A DNA stretch of 15,356 nucleotides, from UHGV virus genome UHGV-1950618. One strand, given 5' to 3'. The stretch comes from a virus. The translations under genes and the position numbers were made by a program. A model generated the notes under the pieces. It was not told the DNA's origin. It did not search any database and saw nothing but the letters and a program-made list of their open reading frames with translations. Below, one piece after another: positions 4,786 through 11,937 of the stretch (position 1 is the first letter of the stretch; each line of letters begins with the position of its first letter).

Positions 4786-5221
4786 TCCAGTCTCCTTCAC
4801 ACTTTTCAATCATAAACTGACGTTCTATGCAGTCATTGATAGGGAAAATGCGATAAAGCGGATTCAGGCGGCAATTACCGTTAGTCAATGTGACCTTTAG
4901 ATCCCACTTCGCTGGCTCAAGATATTTCGTGTCGATGAGCAAATATTCTTCTCTCTCACCGCGTTTTGACGCGTCAACTGGTCTGGTTTTCCCCGAAATA
5001 ACCACAGATGGATTTTTCAAGTCCTGCAACCAATATTCGATTTGTGCATTGCTTACCCAGCTTCGTTTAACGCGAAGCGACACAGGAAACGCTATAGCAG
5101 ACTCTTTCACTACAGCTTCGCCAATGCTCAAAATATCAACACTCTTGCGACGAAATAAGAAACGGTCAATAACGGCAACAAATGCCATGATAAAAATGAA
5201 ATAATTTCCAAAGTCACCCAT
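4775..5221 (-). CDS. 148-aa protein with one N-terminal transmembrane helix; candidate holin regulator (antiholin/LydB-like by position)
   Basis: TAATG stop/start overlap with the upstream holin-like gene. Hydrophobic segment NYFIFIMAFVAVIDRFLF at aa 6-23 followed by a Cys-containing soluble domain; no lysozyme or coiled-coil spanin signature. Confidence 0.45.
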   Translation of the reverse strand: MGDFGNYFIFIMAFVAVIDRFLFRRKSVDILSIGEAVVKESAIAFPVSLRVKRSWVSNAQIEYWLQDLKNPSVVISGKTRPVDASKRGEREEYLLIDTKYLEPAKWDLKVTLTNGNCRLNPLYRIFPINDCIERQFMIEKCEGDWNVK

Positions 5222-5547
5222 TACTTCTCTCCACCTTTTCCCCCACTCGCTATTACGCTTAAGAGATTCAAGACGTTACTAGCTCTGGACTTCAAGCCCT
5301 GTAAAATTTCACTTCCGTTGTTACTGGCAATCAGAACAACGCAGTAAATGATGCCTTCCGGCCATTCATAGCTATCAGCCACCCAAAACCCCGCAAGCCC
5401 GGCAGTTACCGCAGTAAACAATTCACTCGCGAGGTTGAGCAGTGACGCAGAAATGCGCCCGTCTCTAACTCCGAGAAGGAATACGCCGGTTCCACTCAGC
5501 AGGGATGTTATGACTGCTACAGCCAGATTTTCATAATCTGCAAACAT
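5221..5547 (-). CDS. 108-aa three-TM membrane protein, class I holin-like (LydA-like by position)
   Basis: Three hydrophobic helices (aa ~8-27, 36-57, 65-85) and a charged C-terminal tail ending KGGEK; ATG preceded by GGAGGGG. First gene after a ~460-bp spacer. Confidence 0.5.
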   Translation of the reverse strand: MFADYENLAVAVITSLLSGTGVFLLGVRDGRISASLLNLASELFTAVTAGLAGFWVADSYEWPEGIIYCVVLIASNNGSEILQGLKSRASNVLNLLSVIASGGKGGEK

Positions 5548-5859
5548 ACCCCTCCAGAAATGACGTTTAACGCGGCTTCAACTTATCCAGTTTGTTATTT
5601 CCCGACTAAATGCCATTCACACAAAATGGATGCATATGATGGCCCGGTGGTCCGTAAACCTCGTCACTCAGAGCGTGGAGGATGCCAAATTCGCGTATCA
5701 ACAAAATGGTCCAAACACGGCTTTAAAGAGAAATACGCTTGAATGCGCAAGATGTGAGCTGATTCTTGAGGACAAAATGATGACATGTGAGTCTTCACAA
5801 GCGTCATTCAGTGAATATAATGCCCCCCTCTCAGATACCACTAACTGAGTGTTCATTTT

Positions 5860-5893
5860 GCCCGCCGTCATTGACTGGACGGCGGCTTTTTTG
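5860..5893 (+). terminator. plus-strand intrinsic terminator with no convincing plus-strand gene upstream
   Basis: 8-bp GC stem CCGCCGTC/GACGGCGG (5862-5869 with 5878-5885), 8-nt loop, then C plus TTTTTT (5887-5892). Confidence 0.7.
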
Positions 5894-5942
5894 TACCAAA
5901 GGATTGTATTACTAAAAAAGGTCACAAAAGCACTCACTAATA

Positions 5943-5965
5943 AAGCCCTCAACAAAAGAGGGCTT
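5943..5965 (-). terminator. candidate terminator downstream of the tail-fibre assembly gene
   Basis: 8-bp stem AAGCCCTC/GAGGGCTT with 7-nt loop, 43 nt after the tfa stop; on the minus strand followed by UAUUAGUGAGUGCUUUUGUGACCUUUUUU (interrupted U tract). Confidence 0.5.
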
Positions 5966-6007
5966 GAAATATCAAAAAAGCAGTGCTGATTGGATTGTTA
6001 TGATTGT

Positions 6008-6430
6008 TTATGCAGGCATCTCAGGCCATGAGATATCTGCATCAACAGAAGTGTCAACTCTATTAAGAAGAACTCTATACCTCTTTAACTTTGTCAACAT
6101 TTCTATTTCCTCATCAGTGGCAATATCCATATCAACAGCATCCTGAAGCGTTGATATTTTTATGCTCACATCATTCATAAGACTACTTTTGGTGTTTTCA
6201 GCAATGCTGACTCTATCCTCTAAGCTCATAGGTTGTGGGTCAGATAACATTGGATAACCATCGCCATTTGCAATTATTATTTTCCCATTGCCATACCCTG
6301 ATAACAATTCATCATATAAGTCATCAGGTATATGTACAGCATCGGACGGCCATGAACCGTTTTTATCGTAATCTTCTTTTAGTCTATCGTCGTAGAAACC
6401 ACCAGTATCTTTGCTGTAATACTTTGCCAT
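6008..6430 (-). CDS. tfa: tail fibre assembly chaperone (Tfa / P2 gpG / P1 U family)
   Basis: C-terminus KLKRYRVLLNRVDTSVDADISWPEMPA matches the conserved Tfa C-terminal signature (KYRVLLNRVDTS...WP). Lies directly downstream of the tail fibre gene; AT-rich. Confidence 0.85.
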   Translation of the reverse strand: MAKYYSKDTGGFYDDRLKEDYDKNGSWPSDAVHIPDDLYDELLSGYGNGKIIIANGDGYPMLSDPQPMSLEDRVSIAENTKSSLMNDVSIKISTLQDAVDMDIATDEEIEMLTKLKRYRVLLNRVDTSVDADISWPEMPA

Positions 6431-6461
6431 TTAAAAGCCTTCATTCTAATTAACTATATTT

Positions 6462-9089
6462 TTAATACCCATAAGCAACATACTGTGCATATACTTTATC
6501 AGTAGAGCTACTTTTTACTGTAAAACCAGTGGCTGAGTTGTTGTATGTATAAAGAATTGCATTAACAGCATTCCCGCTATTAGGTGAAATCACAACTACC
6601 GCACACGCCTCAGGAAAAGCAGTCGGAAATTTAACTACGCTTCCTGGAGTAACAGCCGCTATAATCCCCCACTGCATCATCACCTTAGTTGATGTATCCT
6701 TATGCCATCCATGAATGTTGGCATATGCTGTGTTTTTAGCCTGATATTTCGTGTTGAAATTACTATAGTTACCAGGGGTAATCTGACCAGCGGCAGATAA
6801 ATTCCCCATAACCCTTACATGACCATCAGCACGTCCTAATTCTACGCGACCATCACCGCCATCTATCTTTAATGGAGTGTAAACGACATCACCATTAACA
6901 TTTTGCCCAGTGGTTGATATCTGGAAACTATATCCAGTATTAGTTATTAGGAATCCATAGTTATTATTATAAGTTAGGCGTATAGCATTTTGGCTGCTGG
7001 ATATAATTTCACCGGTAACAGTACCACCTGTTGTTGGTAACGCACCAACATGACTTGCCGTTAATGTGATATCTGCAGAACCATCAAACTTAACACCGTT
7101 GATTGTGCGGGCTGTTTGCAGTTTTGTAGCGGTTGCAGCATTACCTGTTGTGTTCTGGTTACCGGCAATGTTCACACCCGGCAGGTTGATATTGGCGCTG
7201 CCATCAAATGCCACCCCGCCGATTGTGCGTGCCGTCTGAAGTTTTGTTGCGGTTGCAGCATTACCGGTTGTGCTCTGATTACCTGTTTTATTAACGCCCG
7301 GCAGGTCGATATTGGCGGTGCCATCAAATGCCACCCCGCCGATCGTTCGGGCCATCTTGAGCTTTGTGGCAGTATCTGCGTTTCCCGTCAAATTACCTGT
7401 AATGCCACCACTAACTGTTACCCCATTACCGATGGACACCAACCCGGTTCTTAAATTTATAGCAAAAGGTCTTAATGGGCCGATGTCACCATTTTCTCCC
7501 TCACCTTCATTTGTCGGGATAAGATGAAGATATTCCTCGGATCTCCTGAAGATAAGGCCAAAGTCCTGGTTAAATATTCGAAGGGCATTTATTGTGCCAA
7601 TTTTTAGCTGCCCCCCCATTGTGTCGCCAGAACGCTGAACTGCGTTACCAGCTTGAGAAGCAATATCCGTTAAGCCAAGATCTTCAGGGGTCAGAGTAAT
7701 ATCTGCCGACCCATCAAATGCCACACCGTTAATCTTTCTGGCTGTTTTTAATTTCGTCGCAGTATCGGCGTTCCCGGTCAGCGTACCAGTGATCCCCGCG
7801 CTGAAAGTCTGGCGTGCACTCCAGGTATTAGCTGTGCTCAACAGGGGGAGCTTTTCTCCGCTGGTTCCGAGTTCTCTTAAACCAAGGTATTGGATAACAG
7901 CCAGTGTGCTTGTTTTAGCAAGAATATCGCGACCGACTGACGTTAAATCAGTCTGGGCTACAGTGTCTGTTCCGGTAAAGTACGGTAATTTATTTGCCCC
8001 CGTCGCCAGGTCAGCGAGCGCGGTTAAGGTTGCGTCGAGAGGCTGCTTACCTGCCAGGGCATTTGTCATTGTAGCCGCAAAGTTCGGGTCATTGCCCAGC
8101 GCCGCAGCAAGCTCATTAAGAGTATCAAGAGCTTCTGGTGATGAGCCGACCAATGCAGAAATAGCGGCACGAACATAAGCGGTTGTTGCAATCTGAGTGT
8201 TGTTCGTACCTTGTGACGCTGTAGGCGCTGTTGGCACCCCTGTAAATGCCGGGCTTAATAACGGTGCTTTAAGAGCTAAAGCAGCATTAATCGTCTGGCT
8301 AAACTGAGGATCATTGTTAATTGCATCTGCAATTTTTTTCAGCGTATCCAACGCTGAAGGAGAACCATCAATAAGGGCGGTTATTGCGGCCTGAACAAAG
8401 GCAGTGTTTGCGATTTGTGTACTGTTTGTACCTTGTTCCGGAGTTGGAGATTTAGGTATACCAATAAACTCCGGGCTATCAACCGGAGCTTTTAGTTTGT
8501 TTAACGTGCTGATAGCAAGAGGTGTTGCGGCTTTATATTCTTCGTCACTATCCAAAGCACTGGAAAACTCAACACCAACAGCACGATTAGCACGATATTC
8601 AGTGCTAATCATATCTGCGGTAACGGCTTGAGCATTGTCAGGCACGATCACGCGGCATAGCTCAATCTGGTTAGATGCTATTTCCTCATCAACGAGAGCA
8701 ATAATTCTCGCTGCGCTAATATCCGATGAGCTATCTACCTGGCTGGTTTTCACTCCATGTTCGTAATTAGCTTCAAGAACGATGATTGTCGTTACACCAG
8801 CTTCTACAGGAACAAGAACATCACTGACTTGCTGCACGGATATCTGACATTTACCCACGTCAATTGAAGCCGCCCCTCTTCCCTCTGTTTTCTCGGATGT
8901 AATACGCACAAACAGACCATCCCCTGGCACCGGTTCAAACCCACAGTACACTCCGGGCAGAACGATATTTTTCATCTTCCTGTTTAGAGCTTCGGTGCTA
9001 TACAGCTCAAAGTATTGCATGTCTGCAATTAGTGGAGCGGAAATGTCCGAAGATAAGGTGACAATATTCTTTACTTTATCTGCGCACAT
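6462..9089 (-). CDS. tail fibre protein (875 aa)
   Basis: Characteristic fibre repeats: two ~75-aa units (PxxSPxFxG.P..P....GTN.TQIA.TA.V.AAI.AL..SP.ALDTL...A.A..NDP.F) and four ~40-aa units (TGNA.TATKL.TAR.I.GV.FDGSA.I.L). ATG start 2 nt after the upstream stop. Followed by tfa. Confidence 0.9.
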   Translation of the reverse strand: MCADKVKNIVTLSSDISAPLIADMQYFELYSTEALNRKMKNIVLPGVYCGFEPVPGDGLFVRITSEKTEGRGAASIDVGKCQISVQQVSDVLVPVEAGVTTIIVLEANYEHGVKTSQVDSSSDISAARIIALVDEEIASNQIELCRVIVPDNAQAVTADMISTEYRANRAVGVEFSSALDSDEEYKAATPLAISTLNKLKAPVDSPEFIGIPKSPTPEQGTNSTQIANTAFVQAAITALIDGSPSALDTLKKIADAINNDPQFSQTINAALALKAPLLSPAFTGVPTAPTASQGTNNTQIATTAYVRAAISALVGSSPEALDTLNELAAALGNDPNFAATMTNALAGKQPLDATLTALADLATGANKLPYFTGTDTVAQTDLTSVGRDILAKTSTLAVIQYLGLRELGTSGEKLPLLSTANTWSARQTFSAGITGTLTGNADTATKLKTARKINGVAFDGSADITLTPEDLGLTDIASQAGNAVQRSGDTMGGQLKIGTINALRIFNQDFGLIFRRSEEYLHLIPTNEGEGENGDIGPLRPFAINLRTGLVSIGNGVTVSGGITGNLTGNADTATKLKMARTIGGVAFDGTANIDLPGVNKTGNQSTTGNAATATKLQTARTIGGVAFDGSANINLPGVNIAGNQNTTGNAATATKLQTARTINGVKFDGSADITLTASHVGALPTTGGTVTGEIISSSQNAIRLTYNNNYGFLITNTGYSFQISTTGQNVNGDVVYTPLKIDGGDGRVELGRADGHVRVMGNLSAAGQITPGNYSNFNTKYQAKNTAYANIHGWHKDTSTKVMMQWGIIAAVTPGSVVKFPTAFPEACAVVVISPNSGNAVNAILYTYNNSATGFTVKSSSTDKVYAQYVAYGY
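7050..7440 (-). repeat. three tandem ~120-nt coding repeats inside the tail fibre gene, plus a fourth dispersed copy at ~7680-7799
   Basis: Near-identical DNA units are visible at ~7081-7200, 7201-7320 and 7321-7440. GVAFDG is encoded at 7320-7337 and again at 7710-7727 (checked by reverse-complement translation). Confidence 0.85.
8040..8495 (-). repeat. two consecutive ~75-aa fibre repeats (coding)
   Basis: aa ~199-272 and 273-350 of the fibre share the same motif order; the corresponding DNA at ~8161-8280 and ~8341-8460 is visibly similar. Confidence 0.7.
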
Positions 9090-9091
9090 AA

Positions 9092-9538
9092 TTATCCCTC
9101 GACCTGTTCAATGGTCATGAGCAAGCTGTATCGCTTACCTTTGAATAAGGTGTCCTGTTGAGTACAAACAACCCCAAAAGCCTGATCCTCTGCATCTACG
9201 AGAACCAGCGTATTGAAATCGTAAGGTGTATCGTCCGGCATCGTTTCTTGTGGAAAAGCGGCATTAATCGTAATGACACCATCGAGGCTGGAAAGAATGA
9301 GATTGGATTCAGCAAAATGCTGTGCATCACTTAACTTGAAGTCGAGCGGAATATCAGAAATAGTCCAGCCACCAGCACTATTTACCGTCACAAGATCGGA
9401 CTTGCACCAATAAGCCTTTGTCATAACAAAACGCTCACCCCTGCCGATTGCAGACTCTGCACGGCGAGAGTAGTAGTAAGAAAGGAGTTGCGCCTTGTAA
9501 ATACTTGAATCGCTTTGGGATTTTAAAGTTTCAGCCAT
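9092..9538 (-). CDS. 148-aa tail protein of unknown function immediately upstream of the fibre (P1 R-like by position only)
   Basis: ATG start; its stop is 2 nt before the fibre start codon (coupled). No recognisable motif. Confidence 0.5.
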   Translation of the reverse strand: MAETLKSQSDSSIYKAQLLSYYYSRRAESAIGRGERFVMTKAYWCKSDLVTVNSAGGWTISDIPLDFKLSDAQHFAESNLILSSLDGVITINAAFPQETMPDDTPYDFNTLVLVDAEDQAFGVVCTQQDTLFKGKRYSLLMTIEQVEG

Positions 9539-9623
9539 ACGAACATAGCCCCTTTAACAAGCAATAAATCGAAGGGCAGTATGTTCAGTTTGTGATTTCC
9601 AGTGGTCTTTTGTTTTGAGAAAT

Positions 9624-9647
9624 GGCCCCACCCAGGTTGGTGGGGCC
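9624..9647 (-). promoter_or_regulatory. strong intercistronic stem-loop inside the tail operon
   Basis: Perfect 9-bp GC-rich stem GGCCCCACC/GGTGGGGCC with 6-nt loop, 8 nt after the stop of the 280-aa gene and 86 nt before the next start. The minus-strand downstream sequence AUUUCUCAAAACAAAAG is only partly U-rich, so a partial terminator or mRNA processing/stability element is more likely than a full terminator. Confidence 0.5.
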
Positions 9648-9654
9648 TGGTTTG

Positions 9655-10497
9655 CTAAGGTGCAAAATTATAATCCAGCGCCCAGGCGTCGAGCGGGAGT
9701 TCATCGAGATGAAGCACTCTTTCCGTCGTCCGGTCTGGCCTTCCTGCGAACTGGATGCCGTCTAATTGAATGATCGTATCGCTAATAGATAGTTCATCGA
9801 CCATCTCTTGCGTCGTGTACACCCCCTCAATAAAGGACACTTCCGCAGATAAGCAATTCAGGATCTCCGCCATTTCCGGCAATGTTGCGCTCAACTGGAA
9901 AGAAACACCATCAAACACGATATGCAATGGCAATAGCGGCGCTATAACCGTATCAAAATCAGCAAGTAGCTTCTGTACAGCAACGTCTCTGTCATCGCTA
10001 TCATAAGCTCGATACAGCTTATTTTGGTTGACGACAACCAGCCCTCTGGATGTCAGGAAAAACTCACCATATTGTGCCTGAGCAGTCGGTATTTCATTTG
10101 CAGTCGCGAAGAATGAACCATAGGGATGTTTTTCTGTATCGACAGGCGCATACAAAGGTTCCCATGAGACGGGGATTGTGCCAAATTCACGCCAGAACGT
10201 TTGCTCTATCGGCCTTACTGTTCCTTTGAAGTGCACCTCATCCAGTCGTTGAGCTAATAGCATTGGCCTGCGTGTTTTGTCCGTTTCTGTGATAACAAAG
10301 AAACGACCATATTCAGCAATGCGAGTGTCCATATCCTCGCTTGCCATTGTGAAAAACGATTTACGGTTGCTTATTCGCGTGAGAATAGGTTCAACCGATT
10401 CATTCCACACGTCCTGAATCGTATCAACAAAGGTGGCCCACAATTTAGAATCCTGTTTAAATTGCGTCAGACGCTCTTTTAGCCAGTTATTCTGCAT
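9655..10497 (-). CDS. 280-aa baseplate/tail protein (gpI-like by position)
   Basis: ATG preceded by GAGGT that overlaps the upstream TAA (coupled); sits between the J-like gene and the fibre-proximal genes, as in W-J-I-H-G modules. Confidence 0.45.
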   Translation of the reverse strand: MQNNWLKERLTQFKQDSKLWATFVDTIQDVWNESVEPILTRISNRKSFFTMASEDMDTRIAEYGRFFVITETDKTRRPMLLAQRLDEVHFKGTVRPIEQTFWREFGTIPVSWEPLYAPVDTEKHPYGSFFATANEIPTAQAQYGEFFLTSRGLVVVNQNKLYRAYDSDDRDVAVQKLLADFDTVIAPLLPLHIVFDGVSFQLSATLPEMAEILNCLSAEVSFIEGVYTTQEMVDELSISDTIIQLDGIQFAGRPDRTTERVLHLDELPLDAWALDYNFAP

Positions 10498-10506
10498 TGT
10501 GACCTC

Positions 10507-11937
10507 TTACGGATAGGTTATGCTGAACGTTGATGATTCCACGTCCAGATAAACAAAATCATTAAAGTACACTGCTTCTTTCATGTTCTGCGTAGCCACG
10601 TCATAAGACAGGAACATATCCAGCGATTCGATTACTCGCCAGATATCTTTTACTTTGACCTGTGCATAACATTGCTGTGAGTCGTCATCACTCTGCAATA
10701 GCTGGTTAAATGACATGGAGTCTTTACCGAAGTTCTCCTCCAGTGCCGCTTTAATTGCAGTTAGCGCGTCATCCACCAGCACACTCTTTTTTACGATACC
10801 GGTAAATTTGATGTTGAACGGCTGTTCATTGGTGGCGACGTATTCGAACTTCTTATTCAGCTCATTAGGGATACTCTCAAGGGCTGATAATATCTCTGTT
10901 TTCAGAGCTTCCTGTGTTACGCCGGGCTTATGCCCACAAAAGAAAATTTTGTTGATATTACGCACATCAAAGCCCGTTATTTTCTCCTGTAGCGCCTCCC
11001 CCCACACGTTAAGCCATGACGTGCCACTGACCACGTTCTGAATGAACTGGCGGTAATCACCGCCCCAAACAACCTGCTCATCGTAGGCCACATAATACTG
11101 CGCCCTGTTTCGGGTTTCCTCGGTAGTTTCCATGCCACCACCGCCAGAAATGATCGAATCGGTTTTTACTTCCAGTGATTCGACATACCCGGAGATGTTC
11201 CCTGCTGGTTCAAGTTTCTGGCCTTCAGCCAGCGTGTAATCACCGAGGCTTGCCATAATGTCAATGCGTACCTGACTCCCTGCCGCTGGCATCATCCCCA
11301 TTGATCCATCACCGAAGCGCACGCCGATCTGTTCTGTCGGCTTATAAACCAACACATAATGTTTACTGTTATCCCTGGACATGCGGAACAGGGGGTTATG
11401 TGTCCATTTTTCCTCGACACCATTAGTTATCACGACAACTTCCAGGCTGGCGACTTCTGCTGTTAACTCACGGGAAAGTAACAGCGTCAAGAATGGTGTT
11501 TCTTGCACCACGTCGAACGTTACGCTGACTGCTTCATGCTGTTTTACTTCTATGCCGGGTACTGTTTCACCAGCAGGGATAACAACACTACTGCTGGTTG
11601 CAATTGGTGTCTGGTCACTTGTCAGTAATTCAGCCCCTCCGGGTAGAGTAATATCCCTGTCGGTTTTGTTGGTGATGGAAACAGTGCCGTATGACGCATC
11701 GACCAAACGACCGACATAGCCACGGTCTTCCGCTGCCGCGAGAATACTTGCTCTACGCGTCGCGGTGGAAATGAATCCTTCTGTAAGTGCACGGCTTGCA
11801 AATGTACGCGCAATATAAACAATCTGCGCGCCCAAAACGGACTGCATTTGAATAAACTGGCTGTTTACAAATCGCGCCCACCAGGGGTTTTCGTTCAGCT
11901 TGGCATTAAACTTGTCCAGTAATTCGGTAATACTCAC
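10507..11937 (-). CDS. 476-aa baseplate J-like protein (gpJ / T4 gp6 family, by synteny)
   Basis: GTG start in a GTGA overlap with the stop of the gpW-like gene, GGAG 7 nt upstream. Position immediately after a gpW/gp25-like gene. No motif verified by eye. Confidence 0.5.
   Translation of the reverse strand: MSITELLDKFNAKLNENPWWARFVNSQFIQMQSVLGAQIVYIARTFASRALTEGFISTATRRASILAAAEDRGYVGRLVDASYGTVSITNKTDRDITLPGGAELLTSDQTPIATSSSVVIPAGETVPGIEVKQHEAVSVTFDVVQETPFLTLLLSRELTAEVASLEVVVITNGVEEKWTHNPLFRMSRDNSKHYVLVYKPTEQIGVRFGDGSMGMMPAAGSQVRIDIMASLGDYTLAEGQKLEPAGNISGYVESLEVKTDSIISGGGGMETTEETRNRAQYYVAYDEQVVWGGDYRQFIQNVVSGTSWLNVWGEALQEKITGFDVRNINKIFFCGHKPGVTQEALKTEILSALESIPNELNKKFEYVATNEQPFNIKFTGIVKKSVLVDDALTAIKAALEENFGKDSMSFNQLLQSDDDSQQCYAQVKVKDIWRVIESLDMFLSYDVATQNMKEAVYFNDFVYLDVESSTFSITYP

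Follow-up and report, generated by a model that had tools for sequence, protein, structure and literature searches.

In the C segment of P1 and D6, two sets of fibre tip and chaperone genes, Sv-U and Sv'-U', lie between the crossover sites cixR and cixL, and inversion by Cin alternates the two sets. Fibre ends are said, in work of Haggard-Ljungquist in 1992 and of Sandmeier in 1994, to be exchanged horizontally among P2, Mu, P1 and lambda. Among D6-like plasmid prophages, genomes that are otherwise alike differ most in the fibre region (PMC6799933). Here we describe the tail fibre locus in a 15,356-nucleotide stretch (the window) of virus genome UHGV-1950618, which probably carries a foreign two-gene specificity module within a fibre segment that lost its switch.

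The locus shares the gene order of the P1/D6 C segment, its tip and chaperone genes are distal to cixR, and cixR occupies the same place in S as in D6; however, there is no cixL, Sv'/U', functional cin, or lydC as found in P1, and the tip and Tfa are unrelated in DNA sequence to those of P1 and D6 (the Tfa is 31% identical to D6 U). As in Mu S-U (PDB 5YVQ), the Tfa has a two-part layout, with aa 70-139 aligning to the C-terminal domain of Mu U, and the tip aligns to Mu S over aa ~688-755 and in an (I/V)PGNYxNF motif. This similarity is nevertheless remote (E ~1e-7), the C-terminal knob is gp53-like_C/R1-pyocin-like rather than Mu-like, and no inversion of the G-segment type is present in the window. 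The gpH-gpG pairs of P2 have the same plan of conserved anchor, repeats, and swappable tip plus chaperone, and the tip finds its nearest relative at the end of a P2-type gpH carried by a Salmonella prophage; yet identities are only 41-46%, the anchor in the window is a P1-type Sc, and GC in the Salmonella copy is host-like (0.50-0.53). Plasmid pYU39_89 belongs to the same phage-plasmid family but retains cin and both S/U sets (PMC6799933), which the lineage described here appears to have lost.

The element and its gene order

Every gene of the window is encoded on the minus strand. The element is an E. coli phage-plasmid like D6 and P1, and its genes run sit-pmgA-bplA-16-R-S-U-[gap]-lydA-lydB-hdf-darA; the LydA, LydB, DarA and Hdf families and those of bplA, 16 and R are all recognised, in the synteny of tail, lysis and dar genes seen in P1/D6-like (Punavirus-like) elements. 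At the DNA level the window is 72-82% identical to D6 and P1 and 98.6% identical to plasmid pMUB-MIN14-1 (replicon cluster 1704). The flanking morphogenesis and lysis genes are all intact; a frameshift in sit, suspected from the list of open reading frames, was rejected, the frame running without a stop as far as the window extends. In the sister plasmid pMUB-MIN14-1, lydB is frameshifted, and so is the hdf/darA junction. Features of the locus are listed in Table 1.

Table 1. Features of the tail fibre locus, with positions in the window.
Feature	Position	Strand	Remarks
S tail-fibre gene	6462-9089	-	875 aa, intact ORF
Sc, constant part of S (aa 1 to ~398)	7895-9089	-	Baseplate-proximal anchor, conserved in D6/P1-like phage-plasmids; GC 0.455-0.485
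Orphan cixR crossover site	7875-7894	-	TCCAATACCTTGGTTTAAGA; Sc/Sv boundary inside S; identical to annotated D6 cixR
Segment homologous to inner inverted repeat of D6/P1 C segment	7697-7874	-	No inverted partner in window
Tandem 120-nt (40-aa) fibre repeats	7067-7406	-	ATKLQTARTIxGVxFDGSAxI...; directly upstream of tip
Low-GC distal tip of S (aa ~694-875)	6465-7009	-	Mu-S-like distal domain and gp53-like C-terminal knob; presumed receptor-binding domain
tfa (equivalent of P1 gene U)	6008-6430	-	Predicted tail-fibre assembly chaperone; 140 aa, intact ORF
Spacer, part of cassette	5776-6007		232 nt, GC 0.405; hairpin, terminator and last ~17 nt of deleted U'
Hairpin and T-run after tfa	~5944-5964	-	Read from sequence
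Convergent terminator (U' side)	5862-5885	+	Within spacer
Dead 5' remnant of D6-type cin invertase gene	~5689-5775	+	~87 nt, degenerate, no start codon
lydA holin	5221-5547	-	phrog_1527; first gene beyond cassette

Base composition of the fibre tip and tfa

The GC content of the window is 0.476. Codons 1-690 of S have a GC content of 0.477 (GC3 0.404), rising to 0.510 in the repeat stretch (aa 561-690), whereas aa 691-875 (6465-7019) have 0.400 (GC3 0.297) and tfa has 0.378-0.381 (GC3 0.319). A maximum-likelihood change point, scanned along 9089 to 5776, falls at position 7009, inside S, with GC 0.478 upstream and 0.386 downstream (LLR 13.4; the highest of 500 permutations reached 7.7), and the low GC persists through tfa down to ~5776. 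The tip and tfa constitute the lowest-GC kilobase of the window: 6008-7019 (1012 nt) has GC 0.383 (z = -3.7), with all other non-overlapping windows of this size at 0.424 or above. GC3 is 100/325 (0.31) in the cassette compared with 1962/4241 (0.46) in all other genes (Fisher p = 4.6e-8).

These values bear out a sequence-only reading that had described the 3' end of the fibre gene and tfa as AT-rich relative to the genes upstream, and with GC that is not uniform along the fibre gene, they also support its interpretation as an exchanged cassette. The extent that it gave, ~500 nt of the fibre gene plus tfa, is correct in including all of tfa but too short at both ends, as the low GC takes in ~545 nt of S and continues past the tfa stop through 5776-6007.

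An expected GC for each gene was derived from its amino-acid composition combined with the codon usage of the window itself. The expectations are 0.456 for the tip and 0.446 for tfa, and the observed values lie 0.056-0.065 lower in these two coding regions only, all other genes in the window being within +/-0.026 of expectation. Synonymous sites account for about two thirds of the drop and amino-acid composition for about one third; its size, ~9 points, is clear, not extreme. The lowish GC of lydB and hdf downstream (0.42-0.435) is explained by their amino acids.

Homology breakpoints within S

The DNA encoding Sc is 72-75% identical to D6 and 98% identical to the sister plasmids NZ_CP159120.1 and pEC361_3. 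The N-terminal part and repeats of S match D6 (~73-75% at the DNA level), P1 (82%), and many P1/D6-like plasmids, and these matches end either at ~7723-7695 or at ~7075-7060. Homology to P1-like plasmid DNA (84%) stops at ~7075, close to the end of the last 120-nt repeat, and the fibres of D6, RL465, IncY CP063718 and NZ_CP159120.1 S' cease to match S at aa 683-695 (~7040-7005). The breakpoints in composition and homology therefore coincide, with GC changing where D6/P1-type homology ends, just past the last repeat.

The repeats are reported by TRF with a period of 120 and 2.1 copies, and form direct-repeat families D1 and D2. Their copy number varies between relatives (S has 875 aa in the window, compared with 1169 aa in NZ_LR890273.1 and 1049 aa in P0045), and they are a likely substrate for recombination. 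Plasmid pEC361_3 has 98.7% identical DNA upstream to position 8154, followed by a wholly different distal fibre and tfa, and the same type of anchor also carries other tips in D6 (with a different Sv and U), pEc1079_2 and RL465. Backbone homology to D6 and pEc1079_2 restarts at 5602, near lydA.

Relatives of the tip and its chaperone

The end of the fibre (aa 803-875) matches gp53-like_C (PF21882) with 39.3 bits (cutoff 24.9). In the PDB the tip sequence matches the Mu fibre S (5YVQ_A) and the R1 pyocin fibre (6CXB), and the motif NTA..GW.KD.STG..QWG...FP.AFP..C is common to the R1 pyocin structure and the relatives of the tip. A single-sequence AlphaFold2 model of the tip has a pLDDT of 35.4, too low to use.

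Tfa matches Caudo_TAP (PF02413) over aa 11-140 with 119.3 bits (cutoff 22.1) and phrog_188 with E = 3e-47. Its gene starts 31 nt past the S stop, and in the Citrobacter, LUAb1 and Salmonella relatives, too, tfa directly follows the fibre gene. The C-terminal half (aa ~70-140) finds matches widely at ~60% identity, including Mu TfaU (5YVQ_B, aa 70-139 only), whereas full-length relatives do not exceed 52% and are the only ones to match the N-terminal half. As outlined in PMC9608196, the model of North et al. 2019 pairs a variable, fibre-binding N-terminal half with a conserved C-terminal half; the modular layout read from the Tfa sequence here agrees with it. Within tfa, an Rfam match to IS009 scores far short of the gathering threshold, lies on conserved C-terminal coding sequence, and was not taken as an RNA gene.

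A word-indexed protein search with the tip returned only fragments of its own lineage, and relatives are visible only by exhaustive HMMER search. The nearest tip outside the lineage is that of a Salmonella P2-like prophage fibre (44-46% identity; 1.84 billion representatives searched), and no relatives of the tip above 46% or of Tfa above 52% were found outside this small plasmid lineage in ~1.8-5.8 billion proteins. Distant relatives of the tip and Tfa are found side by side in prophages of P2-like, Mu-like, and other myovirus types. In Salmonella, the P2-like gpH with the related tip adjoins a full-length Tfa of 41% identity; a Citrobacter Mu-like prophage has a tip of 38% with a full-length Tfa of 50% directly downstream; and the myovirus-type prophage LUAb1 has a gp53-like_C fibre followed by a full-length Tfa of 52%. 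Relatives of the tip sit on at least five types of N-terminal anchor. The suggestion that tip and chaperone travel together, in mosaicism of the P2/Mu type, is supported. The accompanying expectation that the two parts of the fibre have separate relatives is borne out beyond the immediate lineage (D6 and P1 for the N-terminal part; the Salmonella P2-like tip, and LUAb1 and Citrobacter for Tfa) but not at close range, where both have the same neighbours.

The nearest tip and Tfa relatives with known hosts are in genomes of 50-55% GC, and low-GC relatives (the LUAb1 locus, at 41% GC, and the APSE phages) are matches to Tfa only, at 45-52%. Comparison of the tip and tfa DNA (5950-7010) with 50,697 phage records by blastn in distant mode gave no match, so that no donor can be named, and acquisition is therefore deduced only from composition and mosaic structure.

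Distribution among sister plasmids

Close copies of the tip and tfa are present in only 16 sister plasmids, among 5,426 complete E. coli genomes, and 15 of these 16 have the same junction as the window. NZ_CP159120.1 has the same tip and tfa and still carries U'-S'-invertase; its invertase (recombinase) gene is oriented opposite to D6 cin and adjoins an older cin stub, so this plasmid is itself rearranged. Of the 17 E. coli plasmids with this type of Sc, 16 have the tip, and with Sc and tip sharing neighbours in this way, the exchange is not recent and there is no sign of its being ongoing. The dN/dS of the tip compared with sister plasmids is 0.37, from few substitutions, and that of Sc is ~0.1; at a value below 1 from so few changes we make no claim of positive selection on the tip. 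Between lineage members dN/dS is 0.25-0.49, which indicates purifying selection.

Remnants of an inversion switch

The cixR in S is an orphan, as no second cix with up to three mismatches is found in the window (0 expected by chance). Positions 7895-7697 match, in inverted orientation, the cixL-proximal start of S' in D6 (82%) and in NZ_CP159120.1 (89%), and no inverted repeats are found in 5500-9100. The 460 nt between tfa and lydA contain no ORFs of an Sv'-U' set on the opposite strand and no Resolvase-family ORF. The spacer is collinear with NZ_CP159120.1 as far as position 5774, which is 17 nt inside the U' of that plasmid. Beyond it, the cin stub is 80.5% identical in DNA to the 5' region of D6 cin, with 17 of 24 residues identical to D6 Cin aa 11-34; its start-codon region is deleted and its 3' part is truncated relative to D6 and NZ_CP159120.1. 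An 85-aa ORF at 5698-5955 and small plus-strand ORFs in the spacer were rejected as genes and taken as non-coding, because searches of Pfam and PHROG gave nothing for them and they lie across the cin stub and terminators.

With no cixL, no Sv'/U', and only a stub of cin, no switching is possible, and the cassette is, as judged from sequence, the distal half of a former Cin-invertible C segment that is now locked on one tip. The earlier view of an exchanged module is supported, although it had overlooked this setting.

Proposed origin of the module

We propose that the region from ~7009-7066 down to ~5776 represents a two-gene specificity module, the tip of fibre S with its cognate chaperone Tfa (U), that would differ from the rest of the element in ancestry as it does in composition. 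Most probably, a phage of lower G+C supplied it, through recombination within or adjacent to the conserved 40-aa fibre repeats. Homology with Mu S/U suggests that Tfa would bind the matching tip through its variable N-terminal half and drive trimerisation through the conserved C-terminal one, and for this reason tip and chaperone would have to travel together. A deletion of ~3.8 kb would then have removed U', S' and the invertase, leaving the orphan cixR and the cin stub with the fibre locked on a single tip. The tip may set the surface receptor for adsorption, probably LPS, and with Tfa may determine host range.

A different account of the low GC is that it is intrinsic, reflecting either beta-structure rich in N, K, I, Y, S and T or weak codon selection, in a module that was always in the lineage. 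Amino acids alone lower the expectation by about a third of the drop, Sc type and tip are inherited together in the 16 of 17 plasmids, and the tfa genes and fibre ends of pEC361_3, NZ_CP159120.1 (U' and the S' end) and D6 (U and U') have GC of 0.40-0.44, below the genome average, so AT-richness could in part be a general property of such genes. Nonetheless we consider this account unlikely, as the synonymous two thirds is unmatched by other genes in the window and the sharp change point coincides with the end of D6/P1-type fibre homology. The tip/Tfa family is not intrinsically AT-rich, because GC is 0.50-0.53 in the homologous pairs of Salmonella and Citrobacter prophages (observed minus expected ~0) and 0.45-0.485 in the D6 and pEc1079_2 tips.

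It is also quite unlikely that the short arrangement S-U-lydA is ancestral, with NZ_CP159120.1 having gained U'-S'-invertase later and the cassette never having been part of an invertible segment here. The prevalence of the short form (15 of 16 plasmids), a junction without long repeats, and the rearranged state of NZ_CP159120.1 would fit such an order of events, but the window retains an intact cixR and inner-repeat homology inside S, together with ~17 nt of the 3' end of U' and the convergent U' terminator; moreover, its cin stub is shorter than the cin sequence present in NZ_CP159120.1 (itself a stub) and in D6 and is a subset of the longer one, for which further deletion is the simplest account. 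Some D6-like plasmids are defective (PMC6799933) and pMUB-MIN14-1 has its frameshifts, and the tip could accordingly be a decaying, non-functional remnant in particles no longer infective, with low GC arising from relaxed selection and AT-biased mutation. This is highly improbable given that S and tfa are intact with their conserved C-terminal motifs kept, dN/dS points to purifying selection, and the flanking morphogenesis and lysis genes are intact.

A module of foreign composition, as here, is an ordinary kind of phage mosaicism and conceptually nothing new, since earlier work had described both mosaic fibre ends and the divergent inversion regions of D6-like plasmids. Modules of fibre tip and chaperone decide which bacteria phages and transducing phage-plasmids enter, and a rare divergent tip could serve as a part for host-range engineering of P1-type vectors; the lineage also documents a P1/D6-like element that gave up fibre switching.

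It is conceivable, but very unlikely, that the orphan cixR acts as a docking site at which invertases supplied in trans recombine it with cix sites on other replicons, through which the locked phage-plasmid would capture foreign sets of tip and chaperone, such as this low-GC set, which would come from a phage infecting enterobacteria of lower GC. Sources of such an invertase could be the Cin of a co-resident P1, the Pin of e14, or the invertase of a plasmid like NZ_CP159120.1.

Identity and gene order of the element

The minus strand encodes all of the relevant genes, whose open reading frames match P1/D6 late genes. From high to low coordinates the order is sit, pmgA, bplA, 16, R, S, tfa, a 460-nt gap, lydA, lydB, hdf and darA. 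The annotated order is the same in the P1 and D6 maps, except that between U (the P1 equivalent of tfa) and lydA these have U′, Sv′, cixL and cin (P1 also lydC), which the window lacks. The full window shares 98.6% identity with pMUB-MIN14-1 (NZ_CP069647.1), an E. coli plasmid of replicon cluster 1704, and its backbone genes are 72–82% identical to those of D6 and P1; these identities mark it as a D6/P1-like phage-plasmid.

Features of the window, with base composition and identity between the window and pMUB-MIN14-1
Feature	Coordinates	Strand	GC	GC3	Identity	Remark
Whole window			0.476			
Flanking genes					99.1–99.7%	
bplA	10507–11937	-				matches P1/D6 late gene
Gene 16	9655–10497	-				matches P1/D6 late gene
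R	9092–9538	-				matches P1/D6 late gene
S, tail fibre, 875 aa	6462–9089	-				matches P1/D6 late gene
Sc, constant N-terminal part of S					96.8%	
S aa 1–690			0.477	0.404		
cixR	7875–7894	-				inside S
Inner-repeat homology	7697–7874					beside cixR
Dispersed repeat copy	7699–7796					copy of the S 120-nt repeat
Tandem repeats of S	7067–7406					120 nt (40 aa)
S repeat stretch, aa 561–690			0.510			
Repeat region					89.7%	most divergent stretch
S aa 691–875	6465–7019		0.400	0.297		
Tip					96.9%	
tfa, tail-fibre assembly protein, 140 aa	6008–6430	-	0.378	0.319	99.1%	
Rfam IS009 (RF02111) match	6045–6222	-				within tfa
Spacer, 232 nt	5776–6007		0.405			past tfa stop
Promoter-like sequence plus terminator	5794–5895	+				
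Intrinsic terminator	5862–5885					followed by T-run
cin stub, 87 nt	~5689–5775	+				adjoins lydA
lydA	5221–5547	-				

Composition and homology breakpoints

The sequence-only reading had claimed that the AT-rich 3′ end of the fibre gene, together with tfa, is likely an exchanged host-range cassette. The AT-richness is real. A single change-point scan from 9089 down to 5776 places a switch at 7009, with GC of 0.478 upstream and 0.386 downstream (log-likelihood ratio 13.4, against a permutation maximum of 7.7; n=500), and the GC of 6008–7019 is 0.383, compared with a minimum of 0.424 among non-overlapping windows of equal size. GC3 is 0.308 in the cassette (the fibre tip plus tfa) and 0.463 in the remaining coding sequence (Fisher p = 4.6e-8). 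When the amino acids of each gene were re-coded with window-average codon usage, the expected GC was 0.456 for the tip and 0.446 for tfa, versus 0.400 and 0.381 observed. All other genes fall within ±0.026 of expectation, including lydB and hdf, whose lowish GC is thus explained by amino-acid composition. About one third of the GC drop of the cassette reflects amino-acid content and about two thirds synonymous codon choice, and low GC extends past the tfa stop and across the spacer.

The DNA match to D6 ends at window 7723 and that to P1 at ~7723–7693, and many P1-like plasmids match at 84% as far as ~7075–7060. Protein matches end at aa 683–695 (window ~7040–7005) for the fibres of D6, RL465 and an IncY P1-like plasmid and for S′ of the sister plasmid NZ_CP159120.1. 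The tandem repeats of S lie directly upstream of the tip, the last ending at 7067, and the homology breakpoint, repeat end and GC change point are all within ~60 nt of one another. Repeat copy number varies among sister plasmids, in which S is 875, 1049 or 1169 aa, and a dispersed repeat copy is also present.

Relatives of the tip and its chaperone

Sc has close and distant relatives across P1/D6-like elements. Plasmid pEC361_3 is 98.7% identical from sit to window 8154, beyond which it has a wholly different distal fibre, two additional ORFs and unrelated tfa genes. The tip plus tfa DNA has no match among 50,697 phage records. Only four plasmids in PLSDB have it, as do 16 of the 5426 complete E. 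coli genomes, every one on a ~90 kb plasmid. An exhaustive HMMER search of 1.84 billion representative proteins with the tip returned a single protein at E ≤ 1e-30, the lineage's own long fibre. The next-best match (46% identity) is the P2-type gpH encoded by a prophage in a Salmonella chromosome, and a Tfa 41% identical to that of the window is encoded directly downstream of it. Tfa has its closest relatives in Enterobacteriaceae bacterium LUAb1 (52%) and in a Citrobacter koseri Mu-like prophage (50%); both are encoded directly after a fibre with a gp53-like_C end, and the Citrobacter tip is 38% identical across the last 125 aa. Tfa proteins of APSE phages are 45% identical. Tip relatives have at least five distinct N-terminal anchor types, and the occurrence of paired tip and Tfa relatives on various anchors indicates that tip and chaperone travel as a pair, on backbones of P1-like, P2-like, Mu-like and other myovirus types.

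All relatives found for the pair on other backbones are distant, and the Sc type is linked to the tip at close range, with the tip in 16 of the 17 E. coli plasmids that have this Sc type. The exchange is real, but it either is old or drew on a source that has not been sampled; no donor of tip plus tfa can be named. The GC of the homologous Salmonella and Citrobacter pairs is 0.50–0.53, so AT-richness is not intrinsic to the family, and the window copy probably came from a source of lower GC. Composition, coincident breakpoints and discordant relatives thus support an exchanged tip-plus-chaperone specificity cassette, as had been proposed. It is a divergent case of a well-known type of phage mosaicism, the only addition being a P1-type invertible segment reduced to one locked tip with an orphan cixR.

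Against gp53-like_C the tip scores above threshold. In sequence it also matches the distal part of Mu fibre S (5YVQ_A) and the knob of the R1 pyocin fibre (6CXB); AlphaFold, run on the single sequence, gave an unusable model (pLDDT 35). The receptor of P1, Mu and R pyocins is LPS, and by homology the tip probably binds LPS as its receptor; on the same footing we infer a role in host range. Tfa matches PF02413 with 119 bits. Only its C-terminal half (aa ~70–140), which aligns to Mu TfaU (5YVQ_B), is widely conserved; the N-terminal half is common to full-length relatives only. This two-part conservation fits the published modular model (PMC9608196, summarising North et al. 2019), in which binding to the fibre tip falls to the N-terminal domain and trimerisation is driven by the conserved helices of the C-terminal part. 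An Rfam IS009 match in the conserved half of tfa spans the full model length but is sub-threshold (35.6 bits, E = 3.6e-6, where the gathering score is 117), and is most likely conserved tfa coding sequence rather than an RNA gene.

Probable loss of the invertible segment

In P1 and D6, all sequence distal to cixR is part of the Cin-invertible C segment. The window cixR is intact and identical to that of D6, with inner-repeat homology kept beside it, but no second cix was found in the window and no inverted repeat in 5500–9100, and the alternative S′/U′, cixL and an invertase are absent from the window. What is left of cin is a D6-type 5′ stub with 17 of 24 aa identical to Cin aa 11–34, its start-codon region deleted and its 3′ part truncated. 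The P1/D6 Cin inversion system is lost, the stub being dead and cixR an orphan.

NZ_CP159120.1 shares both tfa (99% identity) and the tip (91.5%). These are followed by U′ and by an S′ that ends in a gp37_C/pyocin-knob, and then by an intact serine recombinase and a cin stub longer than that of the window. Relative to it, the window lacks 3.78 kb (NZ_CP159120.1 locus coordinates 6314–10094), with the junction at window 5774/5775, ~17 nt within the U′ 3′ end; 15 of the 16 E. coli plasmids with the tip share this junction. The simplest reading is that a deletion locked the fibre on its present tip. A gain of the segment by NZ_CP159120.1 is the less likely alternative, given that the longer stub contains all of the window cin stub and that part of U′ persists in the window. 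The NZ_CP159120.1 recombinase (9261–9842 of its locus) is oriented opposite to D6 cin and lies beside the stub of an older D6-type cin (10055–10195), which suggests that the original block of that plasmid was once exchanged for a complete invertible fibre block of foreign origin, invertase included.

An intact switch is also missing from CP063718, RL465 and pEc1079_2, so fibre switching seems to have been lost, or to have decayed, repeatedly in P1/D6-like phage-plasmids. CP063718.1, NZ_LT906557.1 and NZ_CP081308.1 (P1-like IncY and D6-like) have no cin and no complete alternative fibre set in the stretch from the fibre genes to lydA; one of them has an S of 1554 aa.

Divergence within the lineage

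The fastest-changing gene between the window and pMUB-MIN14-1 is S, which agrees with the report that D6-like plasmids diverge most in the fibre inversion region (PMC6799933). The tip dN/dS is 0.37, and there is therefore no evidence of positive selection on the tip. In pMUB-MIN14-1, the closest relative, single-base indels fall within lydB and where hdf meets darA (window equivalents 4994 and 4184); as a consequence lydB is truncated and a fused 'head protein' of 856 aa is annotated. The window copies of lydB, hdf and darA are intact.

The spacer has a near-consensus sigma-70-like promoter (TTCACA-16-TATAAT, 11/12), also present in NZ_CP159120.1, and a strong intrinsic terminator ~40 nt after it; the ~70-nt product has a folding z of −2.85. 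This could be a small transcript, or the old U′ terminator beside a chance promoter.
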